Origin: Pirellulales bacterium
GTDB lineage: Bacteria > Planctomycetota > Planctomycetia > Pirellulales > UBA1268
Length of the DNA stretch: 55,305 nucleotides
Assembly: GCA_044234625.1 (NCBI GenBank)
Contig: JBIIIP010000003.1
Span: 1-55,305 of the forward strand
Reading direction: 5' to 3'
A program made the position numbers and the translations under genes. Every line of letters begins with the position of its first letter. Within the stretch, counting starts at the first letter, position 1. Below the pieces are notes generated by a model. It saw only the letters and a program-made list of their open reading frames with translations. It had not been told where the DNA came from and did no database searches. This document shows, piece by piece, positions 4,509 to 46,661 of this stretch.

Positions 4509-4530
4509 GGGGGTGCTCCAGAAAGGGTTC

Positions 4531-5901: not shown

Positions 5902-5905
5902 CAGG

Positions 5906-9541: not shown

Positions 9542-9553
9542 GGGGATGAGCCG

Positions 9554-10678
9554 CTACTGTGCCGGAAAAACCTTCTCGTTCACGAGGAGGAGGTTTTCGA
9601 AGCCGATGACGTTCAGGGTGGTGCCGCTACTGAGCAGGGAAGAGGGCACTGCATTCGCGAATGACACGCAGGTGCGGCCAGTGCCCGAGGATGTGATCGC
9701 GGCCGACGTGCTGGTGCCGGAGACGCCCACCGAGCCGCCGGTCGCAATCCACGAAGACCGGATCGAGAGCCACTGAGGGGCGGTCGCTGGCAGGGAAGAG
9801 GATGGCGGGATGGCCAAAACCATCGAGCACGGCTTGAGCAGCGATCGCTGGAGCGAAACCGGAGTGACCGCGGCACTGGCGGCCGCGGTGATGAAGATCC
9901 CGTTGCCCATGTCGGTAAGCGTGATCGCCGAGACTTGGCCACCGGGCTTCTTGAACACGGCGATGCTCGCCTTTAGCGCGGTCATCGTCGCCGCCGGAGT
10001 GTCGGGCGGTTGCCGCGTGAGCATCAAGCCCCAGCACACGCCGCGGTTGAACTGGCGCGCCATGGCGGTGCCCGTATTCATGGTGCCGTTGCTTGCCAGA
10101 AAGGAGTTTGCCGAGAGGTCACCCGTGTCGGCCGGCCTGAACAGGATTTCATCCTCGATGAAAAAGCCCCGGCGGACGGCCGAGGTGCCGCTGTCGATCC
10201 GTTCGGCGAGGAACGTCGTGCCCGTGATCAGCGCCGCCGCCGCCGACGGTCCCGTTCCACTGAACAAGACGCTGACGGGCACTAACGATCCGGAAACGAG
10301 CGTCAGGTTTCCGGTCGAGGCGCTCAGAGCCAGGGCGCCCGTTGTAGTGACGTAGCCGGCGGACGTGGCCGAGGCGGTGGTGGCCACCGAGAGCATCTCC
10401 CCGAAGACGGCGACGGGCGCGTTGGCTCCCATCCCGGCGCCCCGCGGAAAGGCATCCTTTGCCGCCAGGCCCCGGGCCTGCACCTGGGCCATCGCGGCGG
10501 CCGCTGCCGCCGCCGCACGATCCAGGGCGGCCGCCTCGCCGAGCCGCGAGCCAGCGGCGGGCAGCACGGCAGCGATGCTCGCCAGCGCCAGCACGAGGAT
10601 GCCGCACGAGACGAGCACCTCGAGCAACGAGAATCCGGCTCGCTGACGGGGCTCGGCGATGGGGCAATGAGGGGTCAT
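9554..10678 (-). CDS. Prepilin-type minor pseudopilin (GspI/PilV-like by position), 374 aa
   Basis: N-terminus ..QRAGFSLLEVLVSCGILVLALASIAAV (prepilin motif). 4-nt overlap with the upstream gene. Confidence 0.65.
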   Translation of the reverse strand: MTPHCPIAEPRQRAGFSLLEVLVSCGILVLALASIAAVLPAAGSRLGEAAALDRAAAAAAAAMAQVQARGLAAKDAFPRGAGMGANAPVAVFGEMLSVATTASATSAGYVTTTGALALSASTGNLTLVSGSLVPVSVLFSGTGPSAAAALITGTTFLAERIDSGTSAVRRGFFIEDEILFRPADTGDLSANSFLASNGTMNTGTAMARQFNRGVCWGLMLTRQPPDTPAATMTALKASIAVFKKPGGQVSAITLTDMGNGIFITAAASAAVTPVSLQRSLLKPCSMVLAIPPSSSLPATAPQWLSIRSSWIATGGSVGVSGTSTSAAITSSGTGRTCVSFANAVPSSLLSSGTTLNVIGFENLLLVNEKVFPAQ

Positions 10679-11646
10679 TTCACACCTGCCATGACGCCCT
10701 CGCGGGCGAGCGCACGGGCCGTTTTCACGGCCGCCGCGTCAGTGCCGCTCGCCGGGTTGTTCGCGGCCACGCTGACGCGGCCGGTGCCGGGCGCGATCAC
10801 CAGCCAGCGCGAATTCTGCGACTGGAGCGATGTGTCGTCTTGGATGTCGGCGAGCGGGGCGATGAGCAGATAGAGCGGGGCGAACGGCTGCGCCGGTGCC
10901 ACGCCCGACGCATCGTAGAGAATGACCGAATCGAGCCCGCCCGTGCTGTTGAAGGTGATCCCGATCGAGCCCTTTCCGCTGAGCGTGCCGTAGTTGCCCG
11001 TCATCGCCTCGCCGATCCCGCTGTAGCGGAGGTCGATCGCCGCCAACTTCGGCAGGCTGGCGGCCGGCAAGGAGGCGATCGGATAGCGGGCGATCTCGAA
11101 CCGCAGGCTCGACCCCGACGGTGCACTGGGCCAGACCGTGTTGTTGATCGTCTGGCCGGCCGATGAGCGGAGAGAAACGGTTCCCGCGGGGCTGCCTCCC
11201 GAAGGCAAGAATCCCATCCAGGCCGTCTTGGGGAGAGAGGACGAGTTGCCGCCGAAAAAACGAATTTCATAGCCGGTGGCCAGATCCGTCGCGTCGGCAT
11301 TCTCCAGTGTCAGGTTGACCGTTGTGGACGTGGACGACAGCGTCGTCGGGGGCATGCCGGAGGAAACGGTTCCCACGGCGAACGGGGGCACGTCAGCGGT
11401 GAGGATCACGTTCGAGGCCACATCGCCGCTGGGGACACTGAAAATCAGCGCCGCCCCGGTGTCGTTGCCGAGGGCACGGGTGCGGGCGGCGAGGATGGCG
11501 GAGGAGAGGCCTTGCGAAAGCTGCCGCACGTGTGAGGCGGCGCTCGGCCGCATGCCAGCGGCCAGAAGGCCGAGGAACGATGCCATGACGACGGTCACGA
11601 CGAGCAGTTCGATGAGCGTGAAAGCCCGGCGTCTGGGTGCGGTCAT
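10675..11646 (-). CDS. Prepilin-type minor pseudopilin (GspH-like by position), 323 aa
   Basis: N-terminus [31 protein letters not shown] has Ala at -1 and Glu+5. 4-nt overlaps at both ends. Confidence 0.65.
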   Translation of the reverse strand: MTAPRRRAFTLIELLVVTVVMASFLGLLAAGMRPSAASHVRQLSQGLSSAILAARTRALGNDTGAALIFSVPSGDVASNVILTADVPPFAVGTVSSGMPPTTLSSTSTTVNLTLENADATDLATGYEIRFFGGNSSSLPKTAWMGFLPSGGSPAGTVSLRSSAGQTINNTVWPSAPSGSSLRFEIARYPIASLPAASLPKLAAIDLRYSGIGEAMTGNYGTLSGKGSIGITFNSTGGLDSVILYDASGVAPAQPFAPLYLLIAPLADIQDDTSLQSQNSRWLVIAPGTGRVSVAANNPASGTDAAAVKTARALAREGVMAGVK

Positions 11647-12539
11647 TGCCTGGCCTCCGCATCGAGGTTGGTGATGTTGTCGGCCTGGTTGTCCTCGGTC
11701 GCTCCCGACGGCCAGCCTCCGGCGTTGGAGGTGGGTGAGCCACAGTCGGCTCCCGTGACGGGAGTGGAGCCGGCACCAAGGGTGTTTGCCTCATCTTGAC
11801 GGTCGTATCCATTCACCCCGTCCGGCCCCGGAGAGTAGATCAAGGGCCGCATGCCGAGCGTCGGGCGAACCGCGCCCGCCCAGGCCGAGTCGAGGGCCCG
11901 GCCACCGGAAAAAAACAGGTTTCCGGAGCCGGTTGGCAGTTCCACCGCCGGAGCCCACAGCAGGAAACCGATCGGGCTGCCCCACGCATCTTGGAATTCC
12001 GGCATGCCGTCGTTGTCCTGGTCGCCCACTTCCGAGGTCCGCAGCCCACCGCAATCGAGGCAGTCTGCGATGCCCCCGCGCATCACGACCATGAACAGGC
12101 ATTCGGCGCTGGCGTTGTTTGCCATCACGGTCGTTTGATCGGGGGAGGAGAGGCCGTTCCAGATCGCGGCATACGTGCGCTGGGCAGCCGATCGCGGCAC
12201 CCATGCGTTGGCTGCCGTCGCCATGAATTGCACGTCCGTCCACCGGTCAGGCATGTCGCCCGTGATCAGGTTGCGGCGGATGAACCACGCCCGGTAGGCG
12301 CCCTTGTCCGTCGAGCCGGGGCAACCGGACATGTCGACGCTCCGCGAATCGTAGGTCGCCAGCTGCGCCATGAGGATCGTGTTCAACTTGTCGATCGTCG
12401 CCCGGGTGGCGTTCACCTTGGCGGAGTTCCGTGCGGCGCCGACTCCACCGGCGACGAGCGTCGTGAGAACGAGGATGATCGCCACCGAAACCAAGAGTTC
12501 GGTGAGCGTGAAGCCGCGGCGGTGAAGGGTGACGCTCAT
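11643..12539 (-). CDS. gspG: GspG-like major pseudopilin, enlarged (298 aa)
   Basis: N-terminus MSVTLHRRGFTLTELLVSVAIILVL. Later DAWGSPIGF and YSPGPDGVNGYD resemble the GspG D-x-W-G and S-x-G-x-DG blocks. It is the first pilin gene after gspF. Confidence 0.7.
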   Translation of the reverse strand: MSVTLHRRGFTLTELLVSVAIILVLTTLVAGGVGAARNSAKVNATRATIDKLNTILMAQLATYDSRSVDMSGCPGSTDKGAYRAWFIRRNLITGDMPDRWTDVQFMATAANAWVPRSAAQRTYAAIWNGLSSPDQTTVMANNASAECLFMVVMRGGIADCLDCGGLRTSEVGDQDNDGMPEFQDAWGSPIGFLLWAPAVELPTGSGNLFFSGGRALDSAWAGAVRPTLGMRPLIYSPGPDGVNGYDRQDEANTLGAGSTPVTGADCGSPTSNAGGWPSGATEDNQADNITNLDAEARQ

Positions 12540-13861
12540 GACAGATCCTGGATCAGCTTGATGAGCGGCAGGAAGAGGGCGATCACGATGAAGCCCACGG
12601 CACCGCCGAGGAAGATGATCAAGAGCGGCTCCATGAGGCTCGTCAGGCTCTCCGTGAGCACCGCCACTTCCTCGTCGTAGTTGTCGGCCACCTTGTAGAG
12701 CATCGTGTCGAGTTCGCCCGACTCCTCGCCGACGTCAACCATGTTCACCACGAGATCGTCGACGACGGGCTTCTTGTAGCGGGTGAGATAGAGCAGGGCT
12801 CCGATCCCCGGCACGAAGACCGTCCAAAACATGGCCGCCACGAGGTTCAGGGGAGGCACCGCGTAGGTCTTCAAGGGCTTCGCGATCGCTTCGCCATCGC
12901 GGATCGATTCGCTGACCTTCGTCAGCAGGTGCTCGAACATCATGTTGCCGGAGGTTTCCTTCGTGATGTTCAACGCCTCGAGGATCGGCACACCCGATGC
13001 CAAGAGCGTGCCCAGGGTGCGGGCGCTGCGCGACATGATGTTTTTCTCGACCAGCTGGCCGAAAATCGGCATCTTCAGCGTGAACAGGTCCCAGCCGAAG
13101 CGGCCGTAGGGGACGAGCGTGATCGCCTTGATGATCAGGCGGACGCCGAAGGGAATCGCCGGAATCAAGAACCACCAGTTCGACACCCAGGTGGAGATGT
13201 CGATGAGCAGTTCCGTCATCGGGGGCAGTTTGCTGCCGAAGTCGTCGAAGATCTTTTTGAACTGCGGCACGATCTTCATCATGATGAACGTGAGGATGCC
13301 GACGGCCACGCATACCACGACGACCGGATAGACCAGCGCCCCCTTGACCTTCCGCCGCAGGGCCTGGCTGCGCTCCATGAATTCGGCGAGCCGCCGCAGG
13401 ATCACTTCCAGGGCGCCGCCCGCCTCGCCGGCCCGGATCATGTTGCAATAGAGGCGGTCGAACGCCTTCGGGCTTTTCGCCATCGCCTCCGAGAGCGTGG
13501 CGCCCCCTTCGATCTCCTCGCACACGTCGAGGAGGCTGTTTTTCAGCTTCCCGGGCTTTTGCATCTCCGCCAGAACCTTGAGGCTGCGGAGGATCGGCAG
13601 GCCGGCGTCCTGGAGGATCGACAATTGGCGGGTGAAGAGGGTGACTTCCTTGACCTTCACCTTGCCGAAGGCGAACGACCGTTTCTTCTTCCGCGCATCC
13701 CCTGCCTTGGCCGCCTTCACCTTGGCCGCCTTGAGCTTCGTCACCATGAAGCCACGGGAGCGGATGGTGGACTGGGCTTCGTCTTCGGTCGCCGCCTCGA
13801 TCGTGTCCTTGATCTCCTTGCCGGTGGCGACGTCGATGGCTTCGAACTGGTAGGTGGGCAT
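12536..13861 (-). CDS. gspF: Type II secretion / type IV pilus platform protein GspF/PilC family
   Basis: MPTYQFEAIDVATGKEIKDTIEAATEDEAQSTIRSRGFMV is a typical PilC/GspF N-terminus. The domain is duplicated and carries TM segments. ATG 13861 is preferred over the upstream GTG 13894, which sits inside a repeat copy. Confidence 0.9.
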   Translation of the reverse strand: MPTYQFEAIDVATGKEIKDTIEAATEDEAQSTIRSRGFMVTKLKAAKVKAAKAGDARKKKRSFAFGKVKVKEVTLFTRQLSILQDAGLPILRSLKVLAEMQKPGKLKNSLLDVCEEIEGGATLSEAMAKSPKAFDRLYCNMIRAGEAGGALEVILRRLAEFMERSQALRRKVKGALVYPVVVVCVAVGILTFIMMKIVPQFKKIFDDFGSKLPPMTELLIDISTWVSNWWFLIPAIPFGVRLIIKAITLVPYGRFGWDLFTLKMPIFGQLVEKNIMSRSARTLGTLLASGVPILEALNITKETSGNMMFEHLLTKVSESIRDGEAIAKPLKTYAVPPLNLVAAMFWTVFVPGIGALLYLTRYKKPVVDDLVVNMVDVGEESGELDTMLYKVADNYDEEVAVLTESLTSLMEPLLIIFLGGAVGFIVIALFLPLIKLIQDLS

Positions 13862-13908: not shown

Positions 13909-15627
13909 TCAGGCGTCGAGGATGGTTTCGCGGATGACTTCTTCCGCCGTTGTCAGGCCGTTGAAAATGCCGAGCATGCCGGAATCGCGGAGCGTGATCA
14001 TGCCGTGCCGGCGGGCGAGCTCGCGCAGGTCTTCGGTCGATGCATTCCGCATCACCAGGTCGCGCAACTCGTCGTTGATCACCATCAGCTCGTAGAGGCC
14101 GAGGCGGCCCTTGTAGCCGGTGTGGTTGCAGCGGTCGCAGCCCTTGCCGCGGTAGAATTTCTTGCCCACGACCTGGTCGCTCGTGAGCTCCAGGTCGGCC
14201 AGGATGTCGGCCCCGGGGATGATCTCCTCCCGGCAGTTGGAGCAGATCCGCCGCACCAACCGCTGGGCCAGCACGGCCTCCACCGTGGCCGTGATGAGGA
14301 ACGGCGGCACTCCCATGTCGCGGAGCCGCGTGACCGTGGAGGGGGCGTCGTTGGTGTGGAGCGTGGAAAACACCATGTGCCCCGTGAGCGAGGCCTGCAC
14401 GGCTATTTCCGCCGTCTCCACGTCGCGGATCTCGCCCACCAGGATGCGATCCGGATCCTGTCGGAGGATCGACCGGAGGGCATTGGCGAACGTGTTGCCG
14501 ATCTCGGCGTCGATGGGCACCTGCACGATCCCGTCGATGTCGTACTCGACCGGGTCTTCCGTGGTGATCAGCTTGTCTTCCACGTCGTTGAGCTCGGAAA
14601 GCGCCGAGTAGAGCGTGGTCGTCTTCCCGGAGCCCGTCGGGCCCGTCACCAGCACGATCCCGTTGGGCCGGCGGATGATCTCGCGGAACCGACGGAGGAT
14701 CTCCTTGTCCATCCCCAGCTTGTCGAGATCGAGCGACACCACGCCCCGGTCGAGCACCCGCATCACCACGCTCTCCCCGAACAGCGTGGGGAGCACGCTC
14801 ACGCGGAGGTCGACCGGATGGCCGCCCACCGAGAGCTCGATGCGGCCGTCCTGCGGGAGCCGCCGCTCGGCGATGTCGAGATTCGCCATCACCTTGATGC
14901 GGGTGGTGATCGCAAACGCCAGATGCTTCGGCGGCGGCACCATCTCCTGGAGCACGCCATCAGCCTTGAGGCGGATGCGAAACTCCTTTTCAAAGGGCTC
15001 GAAATGGATGTCGCTGGCACCGTCGCGGATCGCCAACAGGAGCACCATGTTGAGCAGCTTTCGAACCGGGGCGCTTTCGGCCAGCGCCTCCACGCTCGCC
15101 AGCTCCGTGGGCCCTTCCCGGCCGGCCGCCGCGGCAGCGGCGGCGAGCTCGTCGTCTTGCTCCAGATCCTCGACCAGCGATTCCACGCTCTCGGATTCGG
15201 CCGAATAGGCCTTCTGCAGAACCTTTCCGATCTCCGACTCCGTGGCCACCACCATGTGGATGTCGTAGCCGAGCAGCACCCGCAATTCGTCGGCGATCTG
15301 GATCTTCTGGGGCTCGGCCGTGGCGATCGTGAGCCGCGTGCCATCGAACTCGATCGGCACCACGCGGTAGAGCTGCGCCATGGGCTCGCTGATCAGGCGG
15401 AGCGTTTCCGAGTCGATTTGCCGGTCATAGAGCGTGACGAACGTGGTGTTCCACTGCTCCGCCAGGGCCTCGCCCAGCTGCTCCTCGGAAAAGAAGCCGA
15501 GCGACAGGCCCACCTTGCCGAGGAGCTCACCGCCGCGGTTGGTCTGCTCCTCGAGCATGGTGGCGAGTTGCAGCTCGTCGACGAGGCCGAGATCGATGAG
15601 GATTTTGCCGAGACGCTTGAGGGCCAT
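13909..15627 (-). CDS. gspE: GspE/PilB/MshE-type secretion ATPase with MshEN-like N-domain
   Basis: Walker A GPTGSGKTTTLYS. Asp/His boxes present. C-terminal CxxC..CxxC (CSNC...CDRC). N-terminal RLGKILIDLGLVDELQLATMLEEQ motif. Confidence 0.92.
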   Translation of the reverse strand: MALKRLGKILIDLGLVDELQLATMLEEQTNRGGELLGKVGLSLGFFSEEQLGEALAEQWNTTFVTLYDRQIDSETLRLISEPMAQLYRVVPIEFDGTRLTIATAEPQKIQIADELRVLLGYDIHMVVATESEIGKVLQKAYSAESESVESLVEDLEQDDELAAAAAAAGREGPTELASVEALAESAPVRKLLNMVLLLAIRDGASDIHFEPFEKEFRIRLKADGVLQEMVPPPKHLAFAITTRIKVMANLDIAERRLPQDGRIELSVGGHPVDLRVSVLPTLFGESVVMRVLDRGVVSLDLDKLGMDKEILRRFREIIRRPNGIVLVTGPTGSGKTTTLYSALSELNDVEDKLITTEDPVEYDIDGIVQVPIDAEIGNTFANALRSILRQDPDRILVGEIRDVETAEIAVQASLTGHMVFSTLHTNDAPSTVTRLRDMGVPPFLITATVEAVLAQRLVRRICSNCREEIIPGADILADLELTSDQVVGKKFYRGKGCDRCNHTGYKGRLGLYELMVINDELRDLVMRNASTEDLRELARRHGMITLRDSGMLGIFNGLTTAEEVIRETILDA

Positions 15628-15636
15628 TGTTCTTCA

Positions 15637-15691
15637 GGCAGGCCGGAGGCCTGCCCCAGGTTTTGCTTTCAGGCAGGCCGGTGCGCCTGCC
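15637..15691. repeat. Two GC-rich hairpins between pilT stop and gspE start (variants of the window-wide palindrome family)
   Basis: GGCAGGCC-GGA-GGCCTGCC (15637-15655) and GGCAGGC-CGGTGC-GCCTGCC (15672-15691), read directly. Confidence 0.7.
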
Positions 15692-15698
15692 GCGTGTG

Positions 15699-17216
15699 TC
15701 ACTCTTCGGGGTGGGAGATCGCGGGCTTCTCCAGAATCCCTTGCTTCGCGTTGGCGATCCGCTGGGCGAGGTCGCTCGGGCTGGCGCTCTTCGCCAGCAC
15801 ATCTTCCTCGGTCACCTTCTTCTCGTTCCAGAGACGGAAGAGCTGGTCGTCGAGGAGCTGCATCCCGAGTTTTGCGCCGGTCTGGATCGCGGACGTGATG
15901 CGGAAGGTCTTGTTTTCGCGGATCAGGTTTCCAATCGCCGGCGTGCAGACGAGGATCTCGAAGGCAGCCACCCGGCCGCCGCCGATCTTGGGCAGCAGCG
16001 TCTGCGACAACACGCCGATGATCGCGGTGGAAAGCTGCGTCCGCACCTGCTCCTGCTGGTTGGTGGGGAAGGCGTCGATGATGCGGTTCACCGTGCCCTG
16101 GGCGCCCGTCGTGTGCAGCGTGCCGAACACCACGTGGCCCGTTTCCGCAGCCGAGATCGCCGCTTCGATCGTCTCCAGGTCGCGAAGCTCGCCCACGAGG
16201 ATCACGTCGGGATCCTGCCGCAGGGCGCGGCGCAGCGCCTCGGAGAAACTCGGCACGTCGGTGCCGATCTCGCGCTGGTTGACCGTGCTCTTTTTCGACT
16301 TGTGATAGAACTCGATCGGGTCTTCGATCGTGATGATGTGGTGATCGTAATTCGTGTTGATGAAGTCGATGAGGGCGGCGAGCGTGGTGCTCTTGCCCGA
16401 TCCGGTGGGGCCGGTCACGAGAAACAGGCCACGTGGCCGGGTGGCCATCTGTTTGCAGACCTCGGGCACGCCGAGCTGTTCGGGCGTGAGCAGCTTGTTG
16501 GGGATCTGCCGCAGCACCATCGCGATAGAGCCGCGCTGCTTGAAGACGCTGACGCGAAACCGGGCCCTGTCGCCGAACGCGAAGCCGAAGTCAGAGCCCC
16601 CCTTTTCCGCGAGCTCGAGCTGGCAGCGCTCCGGCGTGATCGCCTTCATCAGGCCGTTGGTGTCGTCTGCGGTGAGGACTTTCGTGTTTTGTGGCCGCAT
16701 GTGACCGTCGATGCGGAACACCGGCGGCAGGCCGACGGTGATGTGGATGTCCGACACGCCGTTGGAGACGGCGGCATTGAGCAGTTTGTCGATGTGGATG
16801 TTGCCCGTGGCCACGCGCGGCACGACGGCGGGCTCGGCGGCGGCCGACTCCTCCCGGGCGGCCGGGGCGTCCGTGGAGAGATCCAGCTCCAGCGGGGGCG
16901 GCGTTGGGGGAGCCAGCGGCTTGATGATCAGCACGCGTGTGCCTTGCACGTCGTGCAGGGCGCCGGCGAACGTGCCCAGGCCGCACTCGAACTCGAAGGC
17001 TTGGAGATTGGCGTTGGACGGGGCCACGGCCTGGGCCATGGCCAGCACCTCCTCGGCCGGGATGGCCTTCGTTTTGAGGGGCCGCAACTGACCGCCGATG
17101 TTCAGCATCGGGGCCACGCCACCGGAGAGGCGCAGTTCCTTGGCGCCGTTGTCGGAGGCCACCTTGAGCAGCTTTTCGACCTGGGCGGCCAAGGGTGAGG
17201 GAGCGGCCGTGCTCAT
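15699..17216 (-). CDS. pilT: PilT-family retraction ATPase with extra N-terminal domain (506 aa)
   Basis: GPTGSGKSTTLAA Walker A, plus GELRDLETI and GTLHT blocks typical of PilT. Start assigned to ATG 17216 (MSTAAPSPL..). The longer track ORF up to 17729 runs through an intergenic repeat region. Confidence 0.88.
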   Translation of the reverse strand: MSTAAPSPLAAQVEKLLKVASDNGAKELRLSGGVAPMLNIGGQLRPLKTKAIPAEEVLAMAQAVAPSNANLQAFEFECGLGTFAGALHDVQGTRVLIIKPLAPPTPPPLELDLSTDAPAAREESAAAEPAVVPRVATGNIHIDKLLNAAVSNGVSDIHITVGLPPVFRIDGHMRPQNTKVLTADDTNGLMKAITPERCQLELAEKGGSDFGFAFGDRARFRVSVFKQRGSIAMVLRQIPNKLLTPEQLGVPEVCKQMATRPRGLFLVTGPTGSGKSTTLAALIDFINTNYDHHIITIEDPIEFYHKSKKSTVNQREIGTDVPSFSEALRRALRQDPDVILVGELRDLETIEAAISAAETGHVVFGTLHTTGAQGTVNRIIDAFPTNQQEQVRTQLSTAIIGVLSQTLLPKIGGGRVAAFEILVCTPAIGNLIRENKTFRITSAIQTGAKLGMQLLDDQLFRLWNEKKVTEEDVLAKSASPSDLAQRIANAKQGILEKPAISHPEE

Positions 17217-17381
17217 GGGAGAGACACCTTGATTGAGTGAAGGACCCTTCAACCAATCATATTGTGCCGCTGCCGGAGAAACGCGCACAAGCAGGGGGGC
17301 AGCGGGAGAGGCGAATCCGCCCACGTCGAGAATTTCCTGCCGGCCGGGCGGGCCCCTGACAGCCGCCGACCGAACATTTTG

Positions 17382-17410
17382 ATTATGCGCTGCATCGGCA
17401 GAAAAGTCAC
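17382..17410 (-). promoter_or_regulatory. Candidate sigma70-like promoter upstream of pilT (GTGACT-N17-CATAAT)
   Basis: Minus strand reads GTGACT (17410-17405), a 17-nt spacer, then CATAAT (17387-17382), in the least GC-rich part of a 404-bp intergenic gap. The promoter consensus of this lineage is not known to me. Confidence 0.2.
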
Positions 17411-17534
17411 CCATTCCATACGAAAAAAAGCCGGTCAGGCCGAAAAGGGGGCCGGAGGGACAGAGGCCAGCCACTTGGCATGCGGCGGGGAGTGCGGTCG
17501 CAGGGCGATGAGTTTTTCGTGAGCCAAGCAGGCA

Positions 17535-17600
17535 GACAGACCGGAGGCCTATCCCACGTTGGGCAGGGCAGGGCGGAGGCCTATCCCACTTTCGGCAGGC
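17535..17600. repeat. Degenerate copies of the palindromic repeat family
   Basis: GACAGACCGGAGGCCTATCCCACGTTGGG followed by GCGGAGGCCTATCCCACTTTCGG. Confidence 0.6.
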
Positions 17601-17620
17601 GGGCCCGGCTACCTCCCGGC

Positions 17621-19327
17621 CTACTCCTCGACCCGCTTGGAAACGCGGAACACCTCGTCGAGCGTGGTGATGCCGCGGAGAGCCTTGGCCACGCCGTCGT
17701 TGAACATCACCTTCATTCCCTGGCTGCACGCCGCCCGGCGGATTTCCTGGGTGGGAGCCCCCTGGAAGGCCAGTTCACGAATTTTGGTCGTCATCACCAT
17801 CAGTTCGAAGATGCCCAGCCGGCCCTTGTAGCCCGATTTCTGGCAGTTCACGCAGCCGCGGCCCTTCATGAACGTCGCTCCCTTGAGCATTTCGGGGGTG
17901 ATGCCCGCCGCCTCGATCTGGGTGTCGAGAGGCTCATGGGGCTGCTTGCACTTCGGACAGTTCACGCGGATCAGTCGCTGGGCCAGCACGGCGATCACGC
18001 TGGAAGCCACCAGATACGCCGGCACGCCCATGTCGATCATGCGCGTGATGGCACCCGGGGCGTCGTTGGTGTGGAGCGTGGAAAACACGAGATGGCCTGT
18101 GAGCGAGGCCTGGATGCCCATCTGGGCCGTTTCCGTGTCGCGCATTTCCCCCACGAGGATCACGTTGGGGGCCTGCCGCAGCATTGCGCGGATGACGCGG
18201 GCAAAATCGAGCCCGATCGAGTGCTTGATCTCCACCTGGTTGATGCCCGTGAGGTAATACTCCACCGGGTCCTCGGCGGTGATGATCTTCGTGTCCGGGC
18301 GGTTCAGTTCGTTGAGCGACGCGTAGAGCGTCGTCGTCTTGCCGGAACCGGTGGGCCCGGTGACGAGGATGATGCCGTTGGGGCGACGGATGAGATTCTT
18401 GAACTGGCGGAAATCGCCTTCCGACAGCCCCAGTTGGCGGATGCCGACGCGGATGTTGTCTTTGTCGAGAATCCGCATCACCACCGACTGGCCGTGGTTG
18501 GTGGGCAGGACCGACACGCGGAGGTCGTAGTCCTTGCCGTCGGCCGTGAGTTTGATGCGGCCGTCCTGCGGCCGCCGCCGCTCGGCGATGTCGAGCTTGG
18601 CGAGGATCTTGATGCGGGAGAGAATCGCGCCGAGCAGCCGCCGCGGCGGATTGTCGCGCTCCACCAGCCGCCCGTCGATGCGGTAACGGATGCGAACACG
18701 GTCTTCGAAGGGCTCGATATGGATGTCGCTGGCCCGGAGCTGCACCGCCTCCGTGATGATGAGGTTCACGAGTTTCACCACCGGCGCGTCCGACGTCTCC
18801 TCCTGCTGCTGGTTGGCCTGCTGCTCGACGGCCGTTTCCGTGAAGTCGATGGCGGTGTCGGTGAACTCCTGCAGCATCGAGTCGGCGCTCTCGCCCTCGC
18901 CCGTGCCGTAGTGGCGATTGATCGCCTCCACGATCTGCTCCCGCGACGCGATCGCCAAGGCGATCTCGCGGTTGAGGATGAAGCGGAGCTTCTCCTGCGT
19001 GTCGATGTCGGTGGGGTCGCTGGTGGCGATCTGTAGGGCCGAGCCCTGCTCGGCGAGCGGGAAGATCGTGTTTTCGCGGGCCACGCTCTCGGGCAGCAGC
19101 CCCACGATCTCGTGCGACACCTCGATCCGCCCCAGGTCGATGAAATCGAGCCGATGCGCCTTGGCCAGCGCCTTCATCACCGTCTCGCCGGGTGCATAGC
19201 CCAGCCGCACGACCTCGTCATGGACGCGCTTGCCCGACGAGGTGGCGAGGCGGTGGGCCTCGGCCAGTTGCTCGGCGCTGACGATCCCCTCGTTGAGGAG
19301 GAGTGTGGAAAACGGATCGGTGGGCAT
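17621..19327 (-). CDS. pilB: Second GspE/PilB-type secretion/pilus assembly ATPase
   Basis: Walker A GPTGSGKTTTLYA. CPKC...CVNC tetracysteine. N-terminal T2SSE_N-like segment. Start assigned to ATG 19327 (MPTDPFSTLLL..), because the track ORF extension overlaps the cupin gene. Confidence 0.9.
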   Translation of the reverse strand: MPTDPFSTLLLNEGIVSAEQLAEAHRLATSSGKRVHDEVVRLGYAPGETVMKALAKAHRLDFIDLGRIEVSHEIVGLLPESVARENTIFPLAEQGSALQIATSDPTDIDTQEKLRFILNREIALAIASREQIVEAINRHYGTGEGESADSMLQEFTDTAIDFTETAVEQQANQQQEETSDAPVVKLVNLIITEAVQLRASDIHIEPFEDRVRIRYRIDGRLVERDNPPRRLLGAILSRIKILAKLDIAERRRPQDGRIKLTADGKDYDLRVSVLPTNHGQSVVMRILDKDNIRVGIRQLGLSEGDFRQFKNLIRRPNGIILVTGPTGSGKTTTLYASLNELNRPDTKIITAEDPVEYYLTGINQVEIKHSIGLDFARVIRAMLRQAPNVILVGEMRDTETAQMGIQASLTGHLVFSTLHTNDAPGAITRMIDMGVPAYLVASSVIAVLAQRLIRVNCPKCKQPHEPLDTQIEAAGITPEMLKGATFMKGRGCVNCQKSGYKGRLGIFELMVMTTKIRELAFQGAPTQEIRRAACSQGMKVMFNDGVAKALRGITTLDEVFRVSKRVEE

Positions 19328-19424
19328 CTGGGTGGCAGGAGAGGTGGCGGCGAATGGGGGGATGAAGACGAGGTCGGCCCCCGCTTCCCGTGCGAGCGGT
19401 GGCGGGCCGGAGCCCGCCGGAAGA

Positions 19425-19787
19425 TCACTCCTCCAAAAACGTATCCGAATGCTCGTATCCCGGGGCACAGGTGCACAAGAAGACGAGTTCCTCCACACCC
19501 GTGTTTCTGATGGTATGCCGCATTCCGGGAGGGATGGCAATGGCATCGCCTGGGCCGACGGGCCGGGTTTCGACCCCCAGCGTCATGTCGGCCGTGCCGC
19601 GGAGGATGTAGTAGATCTCCTCGGTGACCTTGTGGTGGTGGGGTGTGGTCGCCCGCCCAGGCGGGAGCCGGGCCTCGGCGAGGCTCTGGTGGCGGATCGC
19701 GGAATTGCGGTGGGCCATGAGCTCACGGATCGTCGAGCCGTCGACCGTGGTAAAGGGGAGAGTGGAGGCGTGATTGATGATGTCCAT
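19425..19787 (-). CDS. Cupin domain protein
   Basis: PHHHKVTEEIYYILRGTADMTLG...GDAIAIPPGMRHTIRN matches the two cupin motifs. ATG 19787 is preferred, since the upstream GTG 19829 lies in a repeat. Confidence 0.8.
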   Translation of the reverse strand: MDIINHASTLPFTTVDGSTIRELMAHRNSAIRHQSLAEARLPPGRATTPHHHKVTEEIYYILRGTADMTLGVETRPVGPGDAIAIPPGMRHTIRNTGVEELVFLCTCAPGYEHSDTFLEE

Positions 19788-29814: not shown

Positions 29815-30014
29815 CTCGACAGACCGGAGGTCCGTCGCCACTTTTCAGAGGGAGGTCGGTCGCCACTTTCTCATCCACACCAAGCGCCAGGCCCGGAGGG
29901 CCGGGTTCGAGCTAGCGGGCGGAGCCCGCCAAGGCAAGCTCGGCAGGAAGCCGAGGCTTGCCGTGCAGACAGACCAGAGGTCCGTCGCCACGTTTCAGAG
30001 GGAGGTCCATCGCC
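29815..30014. repeat. Composite repeat element of about 180 bp (MITE-like), reverse orientation relative to the copy at 48417-48597
   Basis: Reverse complement of 29815-29992 aligns end to end with 48417-48597, with only scattered substitutions and two short divergent blocks. Core hairpins at 29818-29836 and 29968-29986. Confidence 0.85.
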
Positions 30015-30811
30015 CCCGGCAACGCGAACAGCGCCATCGCGAGGCCCCAGAAAGGCTCGCCCGCGAACAGGCCGACCAGCGGCCAGGCCACCAGCCCGAT
30101 GCGACTCACGGTGCGCTGCATCGACGCGAACCAGATGCCGACCGCAAACAGGAGCTCGAAGGCCGTGATCGCATGCGTGACGGCGTTCATCGCCAGCCCC
30201 GACCGCGCCAGCAGCCCCGTGAGATCGACGACCCGCGAACCCTCCCGGCCGGCCAGCCACCACGCCGCCGTGCCGTTCCACCAGACATCACCCTTGAGTT
30301 GGGCGAGCACGGCTGCCGCCGTGATCACGGCGGCATGGACCTGCACGAGGCCCAGCCCGACGCCCGGTCGCACCGCGAACCCCACCGCGATGCACCACAG
30401 GAGCACCGCCAGGCAATCGTCGGCCGGCCCGGCGAGCATCGGCCCGCGGTTGAGCAGCGACGCCCAGAGCACCGCGGTGGCGACGCTCGTCACCGACGGC
30501 AGCACGCCGACGAGCAGCAGCACGAACGCGGCTGCCGTGAGCAGGAAGAGCAGCCACACCGCACCCGTGGTGCCGGCCAGGGCGAAGAGCGACGCGATGG
30601 AGCCGCCGCGCCACGCGGCCACCGTGTCCGCCGGGAGCAGCCCGGCCGGGCCGAACCAGGCCTCGATGTCGGCTGCGTAGCTCCACAGCAAAAAGAGCCC
30701 GAGCGAGGCGGCGCCCACGCGGAGCATGGCCAGCGGCCGCGGGTCAGCCGGCGCGAACCAGAAACGGTTCCACGTGGCCGCGAGGGGCGCGGCCGGGCCG
30801 AACTCGTTCAT
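29912..30811 (-). CDS. HTTM-like polytopic membrane protein
   Basis: MNEFGPAAPLAATWNRFWFAPADPRPLAMLRVGAASLGLFLLW is an HTTM-type N-terminus. Multiple TM segments. ATG 30811 overlaps the upstream stop (ATGA). The last ~33 codons lie in the repeat element. Confidence 0.55.
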   Translation of the reverse strand: MNEFGPAAPLAATWNRFWFAPADPRPLAMLRVGAASLGLFLLWSYAADIEAWFGPAGLLPADTVAAWRGGSIASLFALAGTTGAVWLLFLLTAAAFVLLLVGVLPSVTSVATAVLWASLLNRGPMLAGPADDCLAVLLWCIAVGFAVRPGVGLGLVQVHAAVITAAAVLAQLKGDVWWNGTAAWWLAGREGSRVVDLTGLLARSGLAMNAVTHAITAFELLFAVGIWFASMQRTVSRIGLVAWPLVGLFAGEPFWGLAMALFALPGAMDLPLKRGDGPLVCLHGKPRLPAELALAGSAR

Positions 30812-31431
30812 GGCTCGTCTCCCGGCCGCGGCGTGAGCGGCGCGACCTCTCCCCGCGGCTCCTGGCGAATGAGTTGGATCTCCTCCCCGACGAGGCGAAT
30901 CCGCGCGATGGAGACCTGCGCCGGATCGGCCGGCGGACTTCCTCGTTCGGGCAGGGGACGGCGCATCACCCGCACGACGACGTCGGTCGAGCCCAGGTCT
31001 TCGAACAGGCCGCGGCCGATCGCCGTGGGGAGGACCGCCTCCCGATCCGCGTCGTCCATCGGCAGCGCGGCGGCGCGGGCGAGCCGCCGCCACCGCGCCG
31101 CGCGCTCGCCCCACAGGCCGTCGGGCAGCCGCTGCTTCCGGTGGCCGTGCGGGTCGTCGTGGCGCCGGACGTCGAGAAAGTGATCGGCATCGTCTTCGAA
31201 GCCGTGCGTGAGCCGATAGTCGAAGCCGAGATCGAGCCACAACGGCACCATCCACGGCGAGAAAAGCCGGCCTTTGACCGTGGAGAGGAGCCACGATCCG
31301 CCGCTCGTCGTGTTCACTGCCACGGTGAGCACGAGGCCCACGAGATACGCGCCGAGCGCGACCGTGACCACGGTGCGGAAGGCCTCGGAAGGCGGCGCTG
31401 CATCGGCGGGACTGCGAGGTGGGGATGGCAT
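30808..31431 (-). CDS. Hypothetical membrane-anchored protein
   Basis: ATG 31431 (MPSPPRSPADAAPPSEAFRTVVTVALGAYLVGLVLTVAV). Translationally coupled to the HTTM-like gene. Confidence 0.5.
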   Translation of the reverse strand: MPSPPRSPADAAPPSEAFRTVVTVALGAYLVGLVLTVAVNTTSGGSWLLSTVKGRLFSPWMVPLWLDLGFDYRLTHGFEDDADHFLDVRRHDDPHGHRKQRLPDGLWGERAARWRRLARAAALPMDDADREAVLPTAIGRGLFEDLGSTDVVVRVMRRPLPERGSPPADPAQVSIARIRLVGEEIQLIRQEPRGEVAPLTPRPGDEP

Positions 31432-31490
31432 GACAACAGTGTGATTGGCGGTGGCTGGGTTCGCCAGTGAGCAACGCCCGTCGGGCTGCG

Positions 31491-31519
31491 TTGACACGCC
31501 CCGCTTTTCCCGATAGTTT
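31491..31519 (+). promoter_or_regulatory. Candidate promoter upstream of tRNA-Ala (TTGACA-N17-TAGTTT)
   Basis: Perfect -35 hexamer at 31491-31496, a 17-nt spacer, then TAGTTT at 31514-31519, about 70 nt before the tRNA. Confidence 0.25.
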
Positions 31520-31589
31520 CCGGGTGTCGAAAGGTCGTGCTTGGCGGCCCGATCCTTCCCCGGCAATCTCACCCGCGACTTGATACTCC

Positions 31590-31698: not shown

Positions 31699-32637
31699 GT
31701 GAAGGGTTTCCGGTCGGGCGATCGGGCGTGGGTCAACGGATCGCTGATCCCCCGCGAAGCCCTCCATCTTCCGGTCGGTGACGCCGGGTTCGTGCTCGGG
31801 GCGACGGTCACCGAGCAATTGCGGACGTTTCGGGGCGAATTGTTCCTGCCCGAGCCGCACCGCGAACGGCTCGCCCTGTCGCTCGCAGCCGTGGGCATCG
31901 ATGCCGGCGTGCCGCTCGACGACGTGATGGCGGCCGCCGCCGACGTCGCCCGGTTCAACCACCGCCATCTCGACGCCGCGGCATCCGGCATCACCGGCGA
32001 TCTCGGTGTTGTGATCTTCGTCACGCCGGGCGATCAGCCGTCTCAGCACGAAGGCCATGCCGGCCGCCCGCTCGTCGCCGTGCACACGTTTCCCCTCGCC
32101 TTCGCGACGTGGGCGGAAGCCTATGCCCAGGGGGCGTCGCTCCGCAGCGTGTCGGTGCGCCAGGTGCCCGGCGAGTGCTGGCCGATCCACGCCAAGGTCC
32201 GCAGCCGCCTGCACTACTTTCTCGCCGACCGCGAAGCCGCGGCGCTGGAGCGCGGGTCGCGGGCGGTGGTGTGTCATGCCGATGGCCGCGTGAGCGAGAC
32301 GGCGACGGCCAACATCGCCATCGTCCGGAGCCACACGCTCCTCACGCCGCCGCCGGCCGACGCGCTGGCCGGCGTGAGCCTGGAATTCGCCCGGCAGCTC
32401 GCCGAGACGGCCGGACTCGGCTGGGAGGAGCGGTCGCTTACCGCACGGGACCTGTCGGCCGCGGACGAAATCCTCCTCACGAGCACCCCCTCGTGCGTCC
32501 TCCCGGCGACGCGATTTGACGGTGTTTTCGTCGGTTCGGGCCGGCCCGGCCCCGTCTACTCGGCCCTCTTGGAAGCGTGGAGCCGCCATGTGGGCCTCGA
32601 TATCGCGGCCCAAGCCCGCGGGTGCGCGACCCCCTGA
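31699..32637 (+). CDS. Class IV aminotransferase family (branched-chain/D-amino-acid aminotransferase or ADC lyase-like)
   Basis: WVNGSLIPREALHLPVGDAGFVLGATVTEQLRTFRGELF..HRERL is a typical fold-type IV N-terminus. GTG start. Confidence 0.75.
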   Translation: MKGFRSGDRAWVNGSLIPREALHLPVGDAGFVLGATVTEQLRTFRGELFLPEPHRERLALSLAAVGIDAGVPLDDVMAAAADVARFNHRHLDAAASGITGDLGVVIFVTPGDQPSQHEGHAGRPLVAVHTFPLAFATWAEAYAQGASLRSVSVRQVPGECWPIHAKVRSRLHYFLADREAAALERGSRAVVCHADGRVSETATANIAIVRSHTLLTPPPADALAGVSLEFARQLAETAGLGWEERSLTARDLSAADEILLTSTPSCVLPATRFDGVFVGSGRPGPVYSALLEAWSRHVGLDIAAQARGCATP

Positions 32638-32643
32638 TTCGGG

Positions 32644-32672
32644 TTGCCTCTTCGACGTCCCCCCAAAATAAT
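32644..32672 (+). promoter_or_regulatory. Candidate promoter for the rhodopsin gene (TTGCCT-N17-AATAAT)
   Basis: TTGCCT at 32644-32649, a 17-nt spacer, then AATAAT at 32667-32672, about 130 nt upstream of ATG 32803. Confidence 0.25.
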
Positions 32673-32802
32673 GCTCGCGAGCACGCACGCCTTCCGCCAT
32701 TCCCGGCGCTGGCTGCGCTGGCTGCGACCGAATGTGTTTCGGTCGTGGGGTGTTTTTGTCACGAGTCGGCTGCATCGCACGCCGGTCCTTCTGGAGGTTT
32801 TC

Positions 32803-33549
32803 ATGCTTTCTTTTCTCGCTCAGGCGACTGACGTCGCCCTCTCCATGGATTTCACGAAAAATTCGCCGCTTCAGTCGATCACGCTCTACCTGTTCTTCGC
32901 CGGCACGGTGGCGATGGGCGCGGGAGCACTGTACTTCTTTCTGCTGCGAAATTCCGTCGAGCCCGTCTACCGCAGCGCGATGGTGGTGGCCGGCCTGATC
33001 TGCGCGATCGCCTGCTTCCACTACTTCAAGATGACGCACGTCTACCAGGAGACCGGCGGGCAGTTTCCCACGGCGCTGCGCTACGTCGACTGGCTCTTCA
33101 CCACGCCGCTGCTGCTCGTGAAGTTTCCGCTGCTCTTGCGGATGGGCGAGCGGGGCACGAAGTTTTTCTGGCAGCTCGTGCTGCTCGACGTGGCGATGAT
33201 CGTCACCGCCTTCATCGCGGAGACGTCGCCGATCAATTCCGAGCGGTGGTGGACGTTCTTCATCGTGTCGTGCGTGTGTGAGGCGCTGATCGTGGGCGTG
33301 CTCTACATGTCGCTGGGGCAGGCGATCGCGGAGGCTCCGGCTCCGCTGGCCAAGGCCCTGGAGACAATGCGGCTGTTCGTGCTCATCGGGTGGGCGATCT
33401 ACCCGATCGGCTTCCTCATGGCCCGGTCCGGAAACGGCGAATACCGCGAGATCATCTACAACATCGCGGACGTGATCAACAAAGTGGGCTTCGGTCTGGT
33501 GGCCTACCACGGCATCCAGGCGATGGGCCACGGTTCGTCGCGCGACTGA
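32803..33549 (+). CDS. Microbial (type 1) rhodopsin, proteorhodopsin/xanthorhodopsin-like, D-T-K motif
   Basis: GGAGG lies 5 nt upstream of the ATG. Seven hydrophobic helices. Helix C RYVDWLFTTPLLLVKF. Helix F GWAIYP. Helix G YNIADVINKVGFGL (Asp plus Schiff-base Lys). Helix B FHY. Confidence 0.93.
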   Translation: MLSFLAQATDVALSMDFTKNSPLQSITLYLFFAGTVAMGAGALYFFLLRNSVEPVYRSAMVVAGLICAIACFHYFKMTHVYQETGGQFPTALRYVDWLFTTPLLLVKFPLLLRMGERGTKFFWQLVLLDVAMIVTAFIAETSPINSERWWTFFIVSCVCEALIVGVLYMSLGQAIAEAPAPLAKALETMRLFVLIGWAIYPIGFLMARSGNGEYREIIYNIADVINKVGFGLVAYHGIQAMGHGSSRD

Positions 33550-33564
33550 CGTCGAGACAAGGCC

Positions 33565-33600
33565 GCCGTCGCGCCGGAGCACGGCCTCCGGCGCGACGGC
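33565..33600 (+). other. Perfect 15-bp stem-loop immediately after the rhodopsin stop
   Basis: GCCGTCGCGCCGGAG-CACGGC-CTCCGGCGCGACGGC. No T-tract follows. Confidence 0.7.
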
Positions 33601-33708
33601 ACGGCCGAAAGCGAGCCGCCGGCGCGATCATCGTCGGGCTCGACCCCGCACCATGAGGGTGCCCCAAGCCTCTTTTCTTTCCGATCTCGCCACACGGAGA
33701 CGCAGGCT

Positions 33709-44530: not shown

Positions 44531-45754
44531 ATGCGGTCCAAAACGACGACGAAGACGTCCGGCGCGGCCAGTGTACGCGACGACGCGGCCGTGGCCGACC
44601 TGGCCACCGCGCGGCGGATCGTGCTCGACCTTCTCGCCATTCCCGGCACGAGCGGCGAGGAGAAGGGCGTGGCGGACCGAATCTGCACGTGGCTCAAAGA
44701 CGCCGGCTGCCCCGCGGCGGCGATCAGCTTCGACAATGCCCACACCAAAACGCCCCTCCGGGGGAACGTCGGCAACCTGATCGTGCGGCTGCCGGGCACG
44801 CTGCCTGGGCCGCGAAGGCTGCTCATGGCCCATATGGACACCGTGCCCGTGTGTGTGGGGACGAAGCCCGTCGTGGCGGGGCGGTACGTGAAAAGCGGCA
44901 ACCCGGCCACGGGGCTCGGCGCCGACGACCGTGCGGGCTGCGCCGTCGTGCTCGCCACGGCGGTCGCGATCCTGCAAAAGAAGCTGCAGCATCCGCCGCT
45001 GACCCTGCTCTTCGCGATCCAGGAAGAAGTGGGCCTGTACGGCGCGCGGTTCGTGAAGGCGACCGATCTGGGCAGGCCGAAGCTGGCCTTCAACTTCGAT
45101 GGCGGCGCCGTGGAGAAGATCACGGTCGGCGCCACGGGCGGCTACCGCATGGATATCGACATCGAAGGCATCCCCAGCCACGCCGGTGTGGCTCCGGAGA
45201 AGGGCGTATCGGCGATCGCAATCGCCTCGCTGGCGATCGCGTCGCTCGTGGAGGAGGGCTGGCACGGGCTCGTGCTGGAGGGAGGCAAACGGGGCACGAG
45301 CAACGTGGGCGTGATCACCGCCGGCGCGGCCACGAACGTGGTGGCGGAGTCGGCCCGCCTGCGGGCCGAGGCGCGGAGCCACGACCCGGCATTCCGCAAG
45401 CGGATCGTGAAGGCGATCGAGGCGGCATTCGTCGCGGCGGCCAGGAAGGTGAAGAGCGTTGACGGCAAGAGGGGCAGGGTCTCGTTCGCCGGTCAGCTCG
45501 ACTACGAGGCGTTTCGCCTCGCCGCCGACGAGCCGTGCGTGGTGGCCGCGCAGGCCGCGGTGAAGGCGATCGGGCTCACCCCGCGGCTCGAGGTGTCGAA
45601 CGGCGGCCTCGATGCCAACTGGATGGCGGCCAACGGCATCCCCACCGTGACGCTCGGCTGCGGCCAGATGGAGATCCACACCACGGACGAACGGCTCGAC
45701 CTCGATGCCTTCGAGGCGGCCTGCGCGGTGGCCCTGCGGCTGGCCGTGGGGTGA
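44531..45754 (+). CDS. M20 family metallopeptidase (PepT/tripeptidase-like)
   Basis: [11 protein letters not shown].., [29 protein letters not shown] blocks (His/Asp/Glu metal ligands). The start is ambiguous: ATG 44492, 44510, 44516 or 44531. Confidence 0.8.
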
Positions 45755-45770
45755 TGGTACATTTCCGCCC

Positions 45771-46661
45771 ATGACCCGCGCCGCATCCAAGCCGCTCGCC
45801 CCCAACAAGGTGCACCAGGGCGACTGCGTGCACCTGCTCTCGCGGATGCAGACCGGCAGCGTGCATCTCGCATTCGCCGATCCCCCCTTCAACATCGGCT
45901 ACGACTACGACACGTACGACGATCGCCGGACGGCCGACGATTACCTCGGCTGGTCGCAGCGGTGGATGGGCGAGATCGTGCGCGTGCTCCGGGCCGACGG
46001 TACGTTCTGGCTGGCCATCGGCGATGAGTACGCCGCCGAATTGAAGGTGCTCGCCACGCGGGAACTGGGGCTCACCTGCCGATCGTGGGTGGTCTGGTAT
46101 TACACGTTCGGCGTCAACTGCAAGCACAAGTTCAGCCGGTCGCACGCCCACCTCTTCCACTTCGTGAAGGATCCGGTCGCCTTTACGTTCAACACCGACG
46201 CGATCCGCGTGCCCTCGGCGCGCGAGCTGGTGTATGGCGACAAGCGGGCGGACCCGACGGGCCGGCTGCCGGACGACACCTGGATCCTCCGGCCACAGGA
46301 TCTGCCTGACGGCTTCACGGCGGAGCAGGACACGTGGTACTTCCCGCGGGTCTGTGGGACGTTCAAGGAGCGATCCGGCTGGCACGGCTGCCAGATGCCG
46401 GAGCAGCTGTTGGGCCGCATCATCCGCGCGTCGAGCAACGCGGGTGATCTGGTGCTCGATCCGTTCGGCGGCAGCGGCACCACGCTCGCCGTGGCCAAGA
46501 AGCTGGAGCGGTCCTACGTGGGCCTCGAGCTGTCGAAGGCCTACGCGCGGCGGATCGAGGAGCGGCTCGCCGGGATTCGAGCCGGCGAACCGCTCGTCGG
46601 GGCGGCCGAGCCGCTGAAAAGCGCGCCGGCCACGAAAAACGGCCGCCGGCTGCGGCGGTAG
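45771..46661 (+). CDS. Beta-class DNA methyltransferase (N6-adenine or N4-cytosine), orphan
   Basis: Motif IV FADPPFN precedes motif [10 protein letters not shown], which is the beta-class order. No nuclease gene is adjacent. Confidence 0.85.

Follow-up and report, generated by a model that had tools for sequence, protein, structure and literature searches.

Among solved structures, the closest relative of the protein considered here is the Exiguobacterium sibiricum rhodopsin (ESR; structure 4HYJ), in which a lysine stands at the cytoplasmic donor position, giving the helix-C motif Asp-Thr-Lys (DTK) at the positions of bacteriorhodopsin (BR) residues 85, 89 and 96. The donor lysine of ESR is deprotonated in the dark through desolvation (PMC8387761, PMC11155677), and it takes up a proton from the medium first and only then supplies the Schiff base, which is the reverse of the order followed by carboxylate donors (PMC8387761, PMC11155677). 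An independent DTK rhodopsin, from Heimdallarchaeota, also pumps H+ outward (PMC7148096), and the “DTK pumps” have been named as a group (PMC10519204), the motif being listed with DTD and DTE as a standard one of the proteorhodopsin type (PMC10154332). For the Planctomycetes, green rhodopsins were described in freshwater members by Andrei et al. in 2019 (PMC6461901), and a 2022-23 preprint by He et al. reported that the Planctomycetes sequences of the ESR branch, which come from clear-water lakes, have the DTK motif (bioRxiv 10.1101/2022.08.01.502354). The present analysis concerns a rhodopsin gene, followed by a blh gene for retinal synthesis, in a stretch, called the window below, of 55,305 nucleotides from a Pirellulales bacterium (contig JBIIIP010000003.1). 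The gene very probably encodes an outward proton pump driven by light, which binds retinal, absorbs in the green and belongs to this ESR-like DTK group among the proteorhodopsin-related rhodopsins. It is long resident at its site, and its product would be supplied with retinal by Blh.

Active-site residues and predicted structure

The rhodopsin frame runs from ATG 32803 to TGA 33547-33549, as read directly from the sequence. Given that the homologues have 243-263 aa and that the arrangement (C/T)GGAGG-spacer-ATG recurs at the start of the gene in most related loci, ATG 32803 was taken as the start, and a longer open reading frame (ORF) of 301 aa beginning at TTG 32644 was ruled out. The product matches the Pfam family Bac_rhodopsin (PF01036) far beyond chance, with E 2e-43 and 148.9 bits against a cut-off of 24.6, and the NCBIfam scan returned no model naming the rhodopsin. 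A sequence-only reading of this DNA had taken the 248-aa ORF, preceded at 5 nt by GGAGG, for a microbial rhodopsin and had proposed a search with the bacteriorhodopsin-like family model, and both the direct reading and the Pfam match bear this identification out.

The segments that carry the functional residues are FHY in helix B, RYVDWLFTTPLLLVKF in helix C, WAIYP in helix F and DVINKVGFG in helix G. Among the structures in the Protein Data Bank, the best sequence match found with HMMER was ESR (E 2.8e-50, 174 bits), the next structure reaching 123 bits, and the alignment to ESR is free of gaps across helix C, where RYVDWLFTTPLLLVKFPLLL in the window rhodopsin stands against RYIDWLVTTPLLLVKFPLLL in ESR. 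A MAFFT alignment of 134 sequences was also made, which includes ESR, taken from the HMMER match, as well as sequences of BR and green proteorhodopsin (GPR), for which the residue numbers recovered agree with the published numbering. In this alignment, the window residues H73, R93, D96, T100, L104, K107, D223 and K227 correspond to H57, R82, D85, T89, L93, K96, D221 and K225 of ESR, to M56, R82, D85, T89, L93, D96, D212 and K216 of BR, and to H75, R94, D97, T101, L105, E108, D227 and K231 of GPR.

An AlphaFold2 model built on 79 homologues reached a predicted local distance difference (pLDDT) score of 93.3 and a predicted template-modelling (pTM) score of 0.89, with helix segments consistent with seven transmembrane helices. 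Its top Foldseek match was again ESR, with template-modelling (TM) scores of 0.84/0.88, a root-mean-square deviation of 1.7-1.9 Å and 43-44% identity, and the further matches were MacR, xanthorhodopsin (XR), Kin4B8 and proteorhodopsins at 28-35% identity. The D-T-K assignment is accepted because the alignment to the ESR sequence, the multiple alignment and the structure comparison agree. A lysine occupies the donor position, the Schiff-base lysine and both counter-ion aspartates are present, and the tuning residue is leucine. The sequence-only reading had made the same assignments by eye, namely Asp-Thr-Lys at the BR 85, 89 and 96 positions, the helix-B histidine of FHY, a green-type leucine, and the second counter-ion aspartate and Schiff-base lysine in helix G, and each of them is upheld.

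A decaying or non-functional remnant would also retain traces of the family, and the loops between helices B and C, D and E, and F and G are indeed shorter than those of ESR, to which may be added that carotenoid genes were not seen in the window, although neither point speaks specifically for decay. The frame is intact and has a strong Shine-Dalgarno sequence, all 26 invariant residues of the family are kept, the seven-helix model is confident, and many orthologues reach 85-93% identity to the protein, which exceeds its neighbours in conservation. This leaves next to no likelihood for a remnant.

Relatives, donor substitutions and tree

At E <= 1e-20, a word-indexed search returned 734 proteins. 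The best 120 are 55-91% identical to the window rhodopsin and, wherever the source is named, planctomycetal (Planctomycetia, Pirellulales, Planctomycetaceae, Gemmataceae, Lacipirellulaceae and Stratiformator vulcanicus). The last of these is a relative in culture, and its rhodopsin (P0095) has 67% identity to that of the window. In a scan of species-representative genomes, 114 loci were confirmed and 80 kept, almost all of them in planctomycete metagenome-assembled genomes (MAGs) from lakes or other aquatic sites (Mendota, Zurich, La Plata, Pavin and Tara-type marine bins). The nearest relatives, in planctomycete MAGs of Lake Mendota, Lake Zurich, La Plata and Lac Pavin, are 85-93% identical and have DTK with leucine or methionine as the tuning residue, and the identity to any locus found is at most 93%.

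The helix-C motif is DTK in 109 of the 120 nearest clusters at 90% identity, the others being DTT (10) and DTQ (1), and in 76 of 79 related species-level loci, which otherwise have DTT (2) or DTD (1). At a greater distance, an exhaustive search at 50% identity gave DTK in 25 of the 150 best cluster representatives, and a search seeded with ESR yielded DTK proteins from Exiguobacterium, Jeotgalibacillus, Marinococcus, Salisediminibacterium, Alkalicoccus, the Acidobacteriota and many unnamed metagenomic lineages. The sequence-only reading had held that a lysine donor is rare outside Exiguobacterium, a view that is contradicted by these counts and equally by the literature, in which the DTK pumps have a name and the DTK rhodopsins of freshwater Planctomycetes are placed in the ESR branch.

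A neighbour-joining tree (200 bootstraps) puts the window rhodopsin in a clade of 34 representatives with 98% support, the named members of which are all planctomycetal, and neighbouring branches have hydrophobic residues at the donor position (DTM, DTI or DTV). Phylogeny had been proposed in the sequence-only reading as a check on whether the protein belongs to a well-populated and already characterised clade of its own phylum. It does belong to a well-populated clade of that phylum, although not to one that has been characterised by experiment. The window protein appears to be of the same group as the DTK rhodopsins that have been published from freshwater Planctomycetes and placed in the “ESR branch” (bioRxiv 10.1101/2022.08.01.502354; PMC6461901), which are known from sequence surveys, and to which it adds a new orthologue at no more than 93% identity. 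To judge from its sequence, it is thus an ordinary new orthologue of a large and already reported DTK group, one that is found in many lake planctomycete genomes.

Some proteins inside or beside the planctomycete DTK clade have another residue in place of the donor lysine (P0049, P0069, P0072, P0073, P0102-P0105, P0108, P0110 and P0112 among the proteins, and L074, L075 and L076 as the donor-swap loci). It is Thr (DTT) in two well-supported sub-clades, elsewhere Gln (DTQ), and Asp (DTD) in a locus of the Chthoniobacterales (Verrucomicrobiota). As far as sequences can tell, the donor has been exchanged naturally here, in proteins that otherwise resemble one another closely.

One may go further and suppose that the planctomycete DTK clade is a lysine-donor lineage separate from the Bacillales ESR clade, with a differing lysine environment and repeated donor swaps, an idea that is tentative and on present evidence rather unlikely. 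If it were true, the clade would offer a natural series for how a buried lysine shuttles protons and for how dispensable donors are in freshwater pumps, and the window protein could show kinetics or a pH dependence unlike those of ESR. The remaining interest of the locus lies in the biochemistry of the planctomycete clade and in its natural donor substitutions. Its practical value is modest, and it opens no new question. The window protein or one of its relatives would be a reasonable candidate for comparing the lysine-donor mechanism with that of ESR.

The MAG records of nine of the loci are titled “Candidatus Kuenenia” or “Chitinophagaceae/Chitinophaga”. In six of them (L001, L002, L004, L020, L021 and L042) the flanking genes are syntenic with Pirellulales/Planctomycetia loci, and in the other three (L054, L063 and L072) the match is limited to the rhodopsin-blh pair. 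It seems that either the titles of these records or the bins themselves cannot be relied on.

Proposed pumping mechanism and its alternatives

In the mechanism proposed for the window protein, all-trans retinal would be bound as a protonated Schiff base on Lys227, and its photoisomerisation would pass a proton to the counter-ion complex of Asp96 and His73 (with Asp223), from which the proton would leave on the extracellular side along a network ending at Glu216. Lys107 would be buried and uncharged in the dark, taking a proton from the cytoplasm before passing it to the Schiff base, in an order that would be the reverse of that of Asp or Glu donors. In the ESR mutant K96A, M decay is slowed and pH-dependent. 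The absorption maximum of the window protein is expected at about 520-535 nm. The retinal would come from the adjacent Blh enzyme, through the cleavage of beta-carotene made by genes elsewhere in the genome.

All the functional residues of ESR have their counterparts here, with H57, R82, D85, T89, K96, E214, D221 and K225 appearing as H73, R93, D96, T100, K107, E216, D223 and K227. The two proteins thus share a lysine at the donor position, a helix-B histidine that presumably pairs here, as in ESR, with the acceptor aspartate, a green-type leucine and an Arg-Glu at the start of helix G, the glutamate of which, in ESR, ends the Asp85...His57...water...Glu214 network that leads to the surface (PMC11155677). 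The pocket of the lysine is also mostly conserved, as eleven residues from the published list of those that influence the pKa of Lys96 (PMC11155677) are kept, in ESR numbering S42, V46, A47, L92, L93, L99, V226, F228, G229, L230 and A232. In both sequence and fold ESR is the best match (44% identity, TM 0.84-0.88). The identity is nevertheless only about 44%, and ESR belongs to the Bacillales and the window rhodopsin to the Planctomycetota.

The supply of retinal would be accounted for by the gene that follows the rhodopsin. Its product matches the Brp/Blh models PF15461 (E 2e-37, 129.7 bits against a cut-off of 28) and TIGR03753 (128.3 bits against 95.25), in keeping with the sequence-only reading, which had noted that the rhodopsin lies beside its own retinal-forming enzyme. 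Of the 80 related loci, about 70 have blh directly 3' of the rhodopsin gene. The locus confirms the presence in lake planctomycetes of a self-contained pair for rhodopsin and retinal synthesis, apparently held under strong purifying selection, the two genes of which may be co-transcribed.

Other rhodopsin pumps resemble the window protein less closely. GPR shares with it the overall fold, the His75-Asp97 pair, Leu105, the Schiff-base lysine and a bulky phenylalanine at the fenestration position, but it is only about 30-32% identical and differs in its donor (Glu108 against Lys107) and in the order of proton uptake and donation (PMC8387761). With Lys107 at the position of GPR E108, the window rhodopsin falls outside the DTE proteorhodopsins. 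The antenna-bearing pumps xanthorhodopsin, Kin4B8 and NM-R1 share the superfamily and the fold (TM about 0.82) and differ at the fenestration, which is opened for a carotenoid by a glycine at XR position 156, the criterion for a carotenoid antenna (bioRxiv 10.1101/2022.08.24.505090). The window protein has Phe153 in this column, which was validated by GPR Phe152 and by the glycine of the zeaxanthin-binding NM-R1 (9JOV/9JOU), and phenylalanine is found there in 32 of 33 clade representatives. A carotenoid antenna was therefore ruled out, and none is expected because Phe153 blocks the fenestration.

A different function, that of a photosensor, of an inward pump or of a pump for another ion, has to be weighed as well, given that the planctomycete clade is known by sequence alone, that neighbouring branches have a hydrophobic residue at the donor position, and that relatives in the ESR group include the sensory “Proteo-SRs” (PMC10519204). 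These sensors, however, are marked by the motif Y-T/C-M and by Htr-like transducers encoded beside them (PMC10519204), and the Pfam annotation of the window showed no transducer or signalling gene adjoining the rhodopsin. The acceptor Asp96, His73, Asp223 and the donor Lys107 are, moreover, all present. Sodium pumps use the motif NDQ and chloride pumps NTQ, neither of which occurs in the window rhodopsin. Both of the DTK rhodopsins that have been tested by experiment, those of Exiguobacterium and the Heimdallarchaeota, pump H+ outward (PMC8387761, PMC7148096). Such another function is thus regarded as quite improbable.

Several points weigh against an outward proton pump working in the manner of ESR, and they touch the donor, the tree and the supply of pigment. 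The largest positive contributor to the pKa of the donor Lys96 in the published calculation, ESR Thr43 (PMC11155677), which corresponds to BR Thr46, is Ala59 in the window protein (codon 32977-32979), the clade having Val, Thr or Ala in this place, and ESR Ala44 is Met60. On account of these two replacements, the kinetics of the donor could differ from those of ESR. The DTK pumps have two motifs in common (PMC10519204), FPLLxG closing helix C and LRE opening helix G. The first, FPLLLG in ESR, reads FPLLLR here (with Arg113 in place of the glycine), and the second reads YRE, with R215 and E216 conserved. Some close relatives carry Thr or Gln in place of the donor lysine, and for this reason the lysine is not indispensable in the planctomycete clade. 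The nodes that join this clade to the Bacillales ESR clade or to the proteorhodopsins have bootstrap values below 25%. Among the roughly 34 ORFs of the window annotated with Pfam, there are no carotenoid-synthesis genes, and no expression or other experiment was found for any planctomycete rhodopsin in open-access papers and preprints. With these points taken into account, the DTK proton pump remains very probably the correct reading.

Composition, synteny and the genes around the rhodopsin

The sequence-only reading had noted that the gene is less rich in G+C than its neighbours and had seen in this a possible sign of horizontal acquisition. The first part stands, as the GC content is 0.623 against 0.69-0.74 in the neighbouring genes, and a recent acquisition of the rhodopsin, with or without blh, could further be argued from the fact that rhodopsin-blh pairs are known to move between phyla and that the DTK group is patchy across the Planctomycetota, Bacillales, Acidobacteriota and Verrucomicrobiota. 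The second part does not stand. By codon position, the gene has GC1 0.57, GC2 0.41 and GC3 0.89, the last lying within the 0.80-0.91 of its neighbours, and the nearby DedA membrane protein has a similar profile (GC1 0.59, GC2 0.41, GC3 0.91; total 0.638). If the other 19 genes supply the codon preferences, the amino-acid composition of the rhodopsin alone predicts a GC content of 0.613. Since the deficit touches positions 1 and 2 only and the amino-acid composition suffices to reproduce it, the low GC content is attributed to the composition of a membrane protein. The codon-usage distance of the gene is likewise inside the range of other short genes, so that the comparison of GC content and codon usage with the flanking genes, which the sequence-only reading had suggested, shows GC3 and codon usage to match those of the neighbours.

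About 35 species-level MAGs share the gene order LigA - membrane ORF - ORF30808 - aminotransferase - rhodopsin - blh - (dedA) - GlnE - MiaB, down to the most distant ones, in which LigA is ~67%, GlnE ~52% and the rhodopsin 71-72% identical. A recent insertion was ruled out on the strength of this synteny, and the Pfam annotation showed no mobile-element genes flanking the pair, all of which makes a recent transfer highly improbable. As the order is preserved in such distant MAGs, the rhodopsin-blh pair is long resident at this site and very probably vertically inherited in a freshwater, Pirellulales-like planctomycete chromosome. An ancient transfer of the rhodopsin between phyla is plausible, since the DTK group is distributed patchily across them. 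Over the syntenic loci, identity is 71-93% for the rhodopsin, 31-61% for Blh and 52-75% for the aminotransferase, and this better conservation of the rhodopsin points to strong purifying selection.

The spacer between the rhodopsin and blh holds a G+C hairpin (Table 1), and the ribonucleic acid (RNA) fold of positions 33545-33640 has -57.1 kcal/mol with z -3.8. Most related loci likewise have a strong hairpin at the equivalent position, though of different sequence. A conserved terminator or RNA stabiliser that keeps expression of the rhodopsin apart from that of blh is suggested by this, and in the window the hairpin is probably a leaky terminator or a stabiliser of the 3' end, which, so read, would let the rhodopsin messenger RNA exceed that of blh. 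A G+C hairpin stands just after the rhodopsin stop in the loci L007, L009-L013, L022 and L035-L061, and relatives of lower GC content (L070, L071 and L080) have a canonical hairpin followed by a T-run in this position.

On the other side of the gene, a consensus scan of the upstream spacer gave a sigma-70-like match, TTGCCT-17-AATAAT, at 32644-32672 and a hairpin with a T-run at 32722-32758. A regulatory claim for this leader was dropped, as the promoter-like and terminator-like matches lack sequence conservation in the relatives.

Table 1. Positions in the window of the rhodopsin gene, its functional codons and the adjoining elements
Feature	Position	Strand	Basis
Class IV aminotransferase, upstream of the rhodopsin	31699-32637		
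Upstream spacer: candidate aminotransferase terminator and/or rhodopsin leader (tentative)	32644-32758	+	Consensus scan only
Shine-Dalgarno GGAGG, 5-nt spacer TTTTC before the ATG	32793-32797	+	Direct reading
Rhodopsin coding sequence, 248 aa, predicted seven transmembrane helices, probable DTK (ESR-type) proton pump	32803-33549	+	PF01036, 4HYJ match, AlphaFold2 model
His73 codon, helix B (ESR His57, GPR His75), predicted partner of the counter-ion Asp	33019-33021	+	Alignment; His in 34/38 clade members
Helix C functional stretch	33088-33123	+	Sequence alignments
Asp96 codon, predicted proton acceptor	33088-33090	+	Invariant in clade
Thr100 codon	33100-33102	+	Invariant in clade
Leu104 codon, predicted green tuning	33112-33114	+	Alignment to GPR L105
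Lys107 codon, cytoplasmic proton donor position	33121-33123	+	Lys in 32/38 clade members
Phe153 codon, carotenoid-fenestration position (XR Gly156, BR Trp138, GPR Phe152)	33259-33261	+	Alignment column
Helix G DVINK: Asp223 second counter-ion, Lys227 retinal Schiff base	33469-33483	+	Both invariant in 79-sequence alignment
Perfect 15-bp G+C hairpin, 6-nt loop, no U-tract	33565-33600	+	16 nt after rhodopsin stop
Brp/Blh beta-carotene 15,15'-dioxygenase (retinal synthesis), 352 aa	33709-34767	+	PF15461 and TIGR03753

The flanks of the rhodopsin consist of housekeeping genes, and the Pfam annotation recognised neither transducer nor mobile-element genes in any part of the 55 kb. Downstream are found a DedA/VTT membrane protein, GlnE, MiaB, Fmt and Def, and farther upstream LigA, a family-9 glycosyltransferase, glycogen phosphorylase and a cyclophilin. 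At 45651-46661 (+), also amid housekeeping genes, lies an N6/N4 DNA methyltransferase gene (PF01555), beside which no restriction enzyme was recognised.

In the left part of the window, at 2497-12734 (-) and 13909-19582 (-), several genes with prokaryotic N-terminal methylation motifs stand in a row, two of them with DUF1559, and three tandem genes for ATPases of the PilB/T2SSE type come after them. Together they resemble a large cluster, of the planctomycete kind, for a type IV pilus or a system akin to type II secretion. DUF1559 is a family typical of Planctomycetes. The planctomycete host that the sequence-only reading had supposed is supported by the genes with DUF1559 and methylation motifs and by the synteny of the locus with Pirellulales/Planctomycetia MAGs.

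Finally, two long ORFs overlap in different frames at 29912-31474 and 30808-31572 (-), without a Pfam match and with homologues at the equivalent place in related loci. Given its GC3 of only 0.74, the upstream half of the 520-aa ORF is probably spurious, and the genuine genes at 29912-31572 are likely one for a membrane protein of ~280 aa and one for a protein of ~250 aa.

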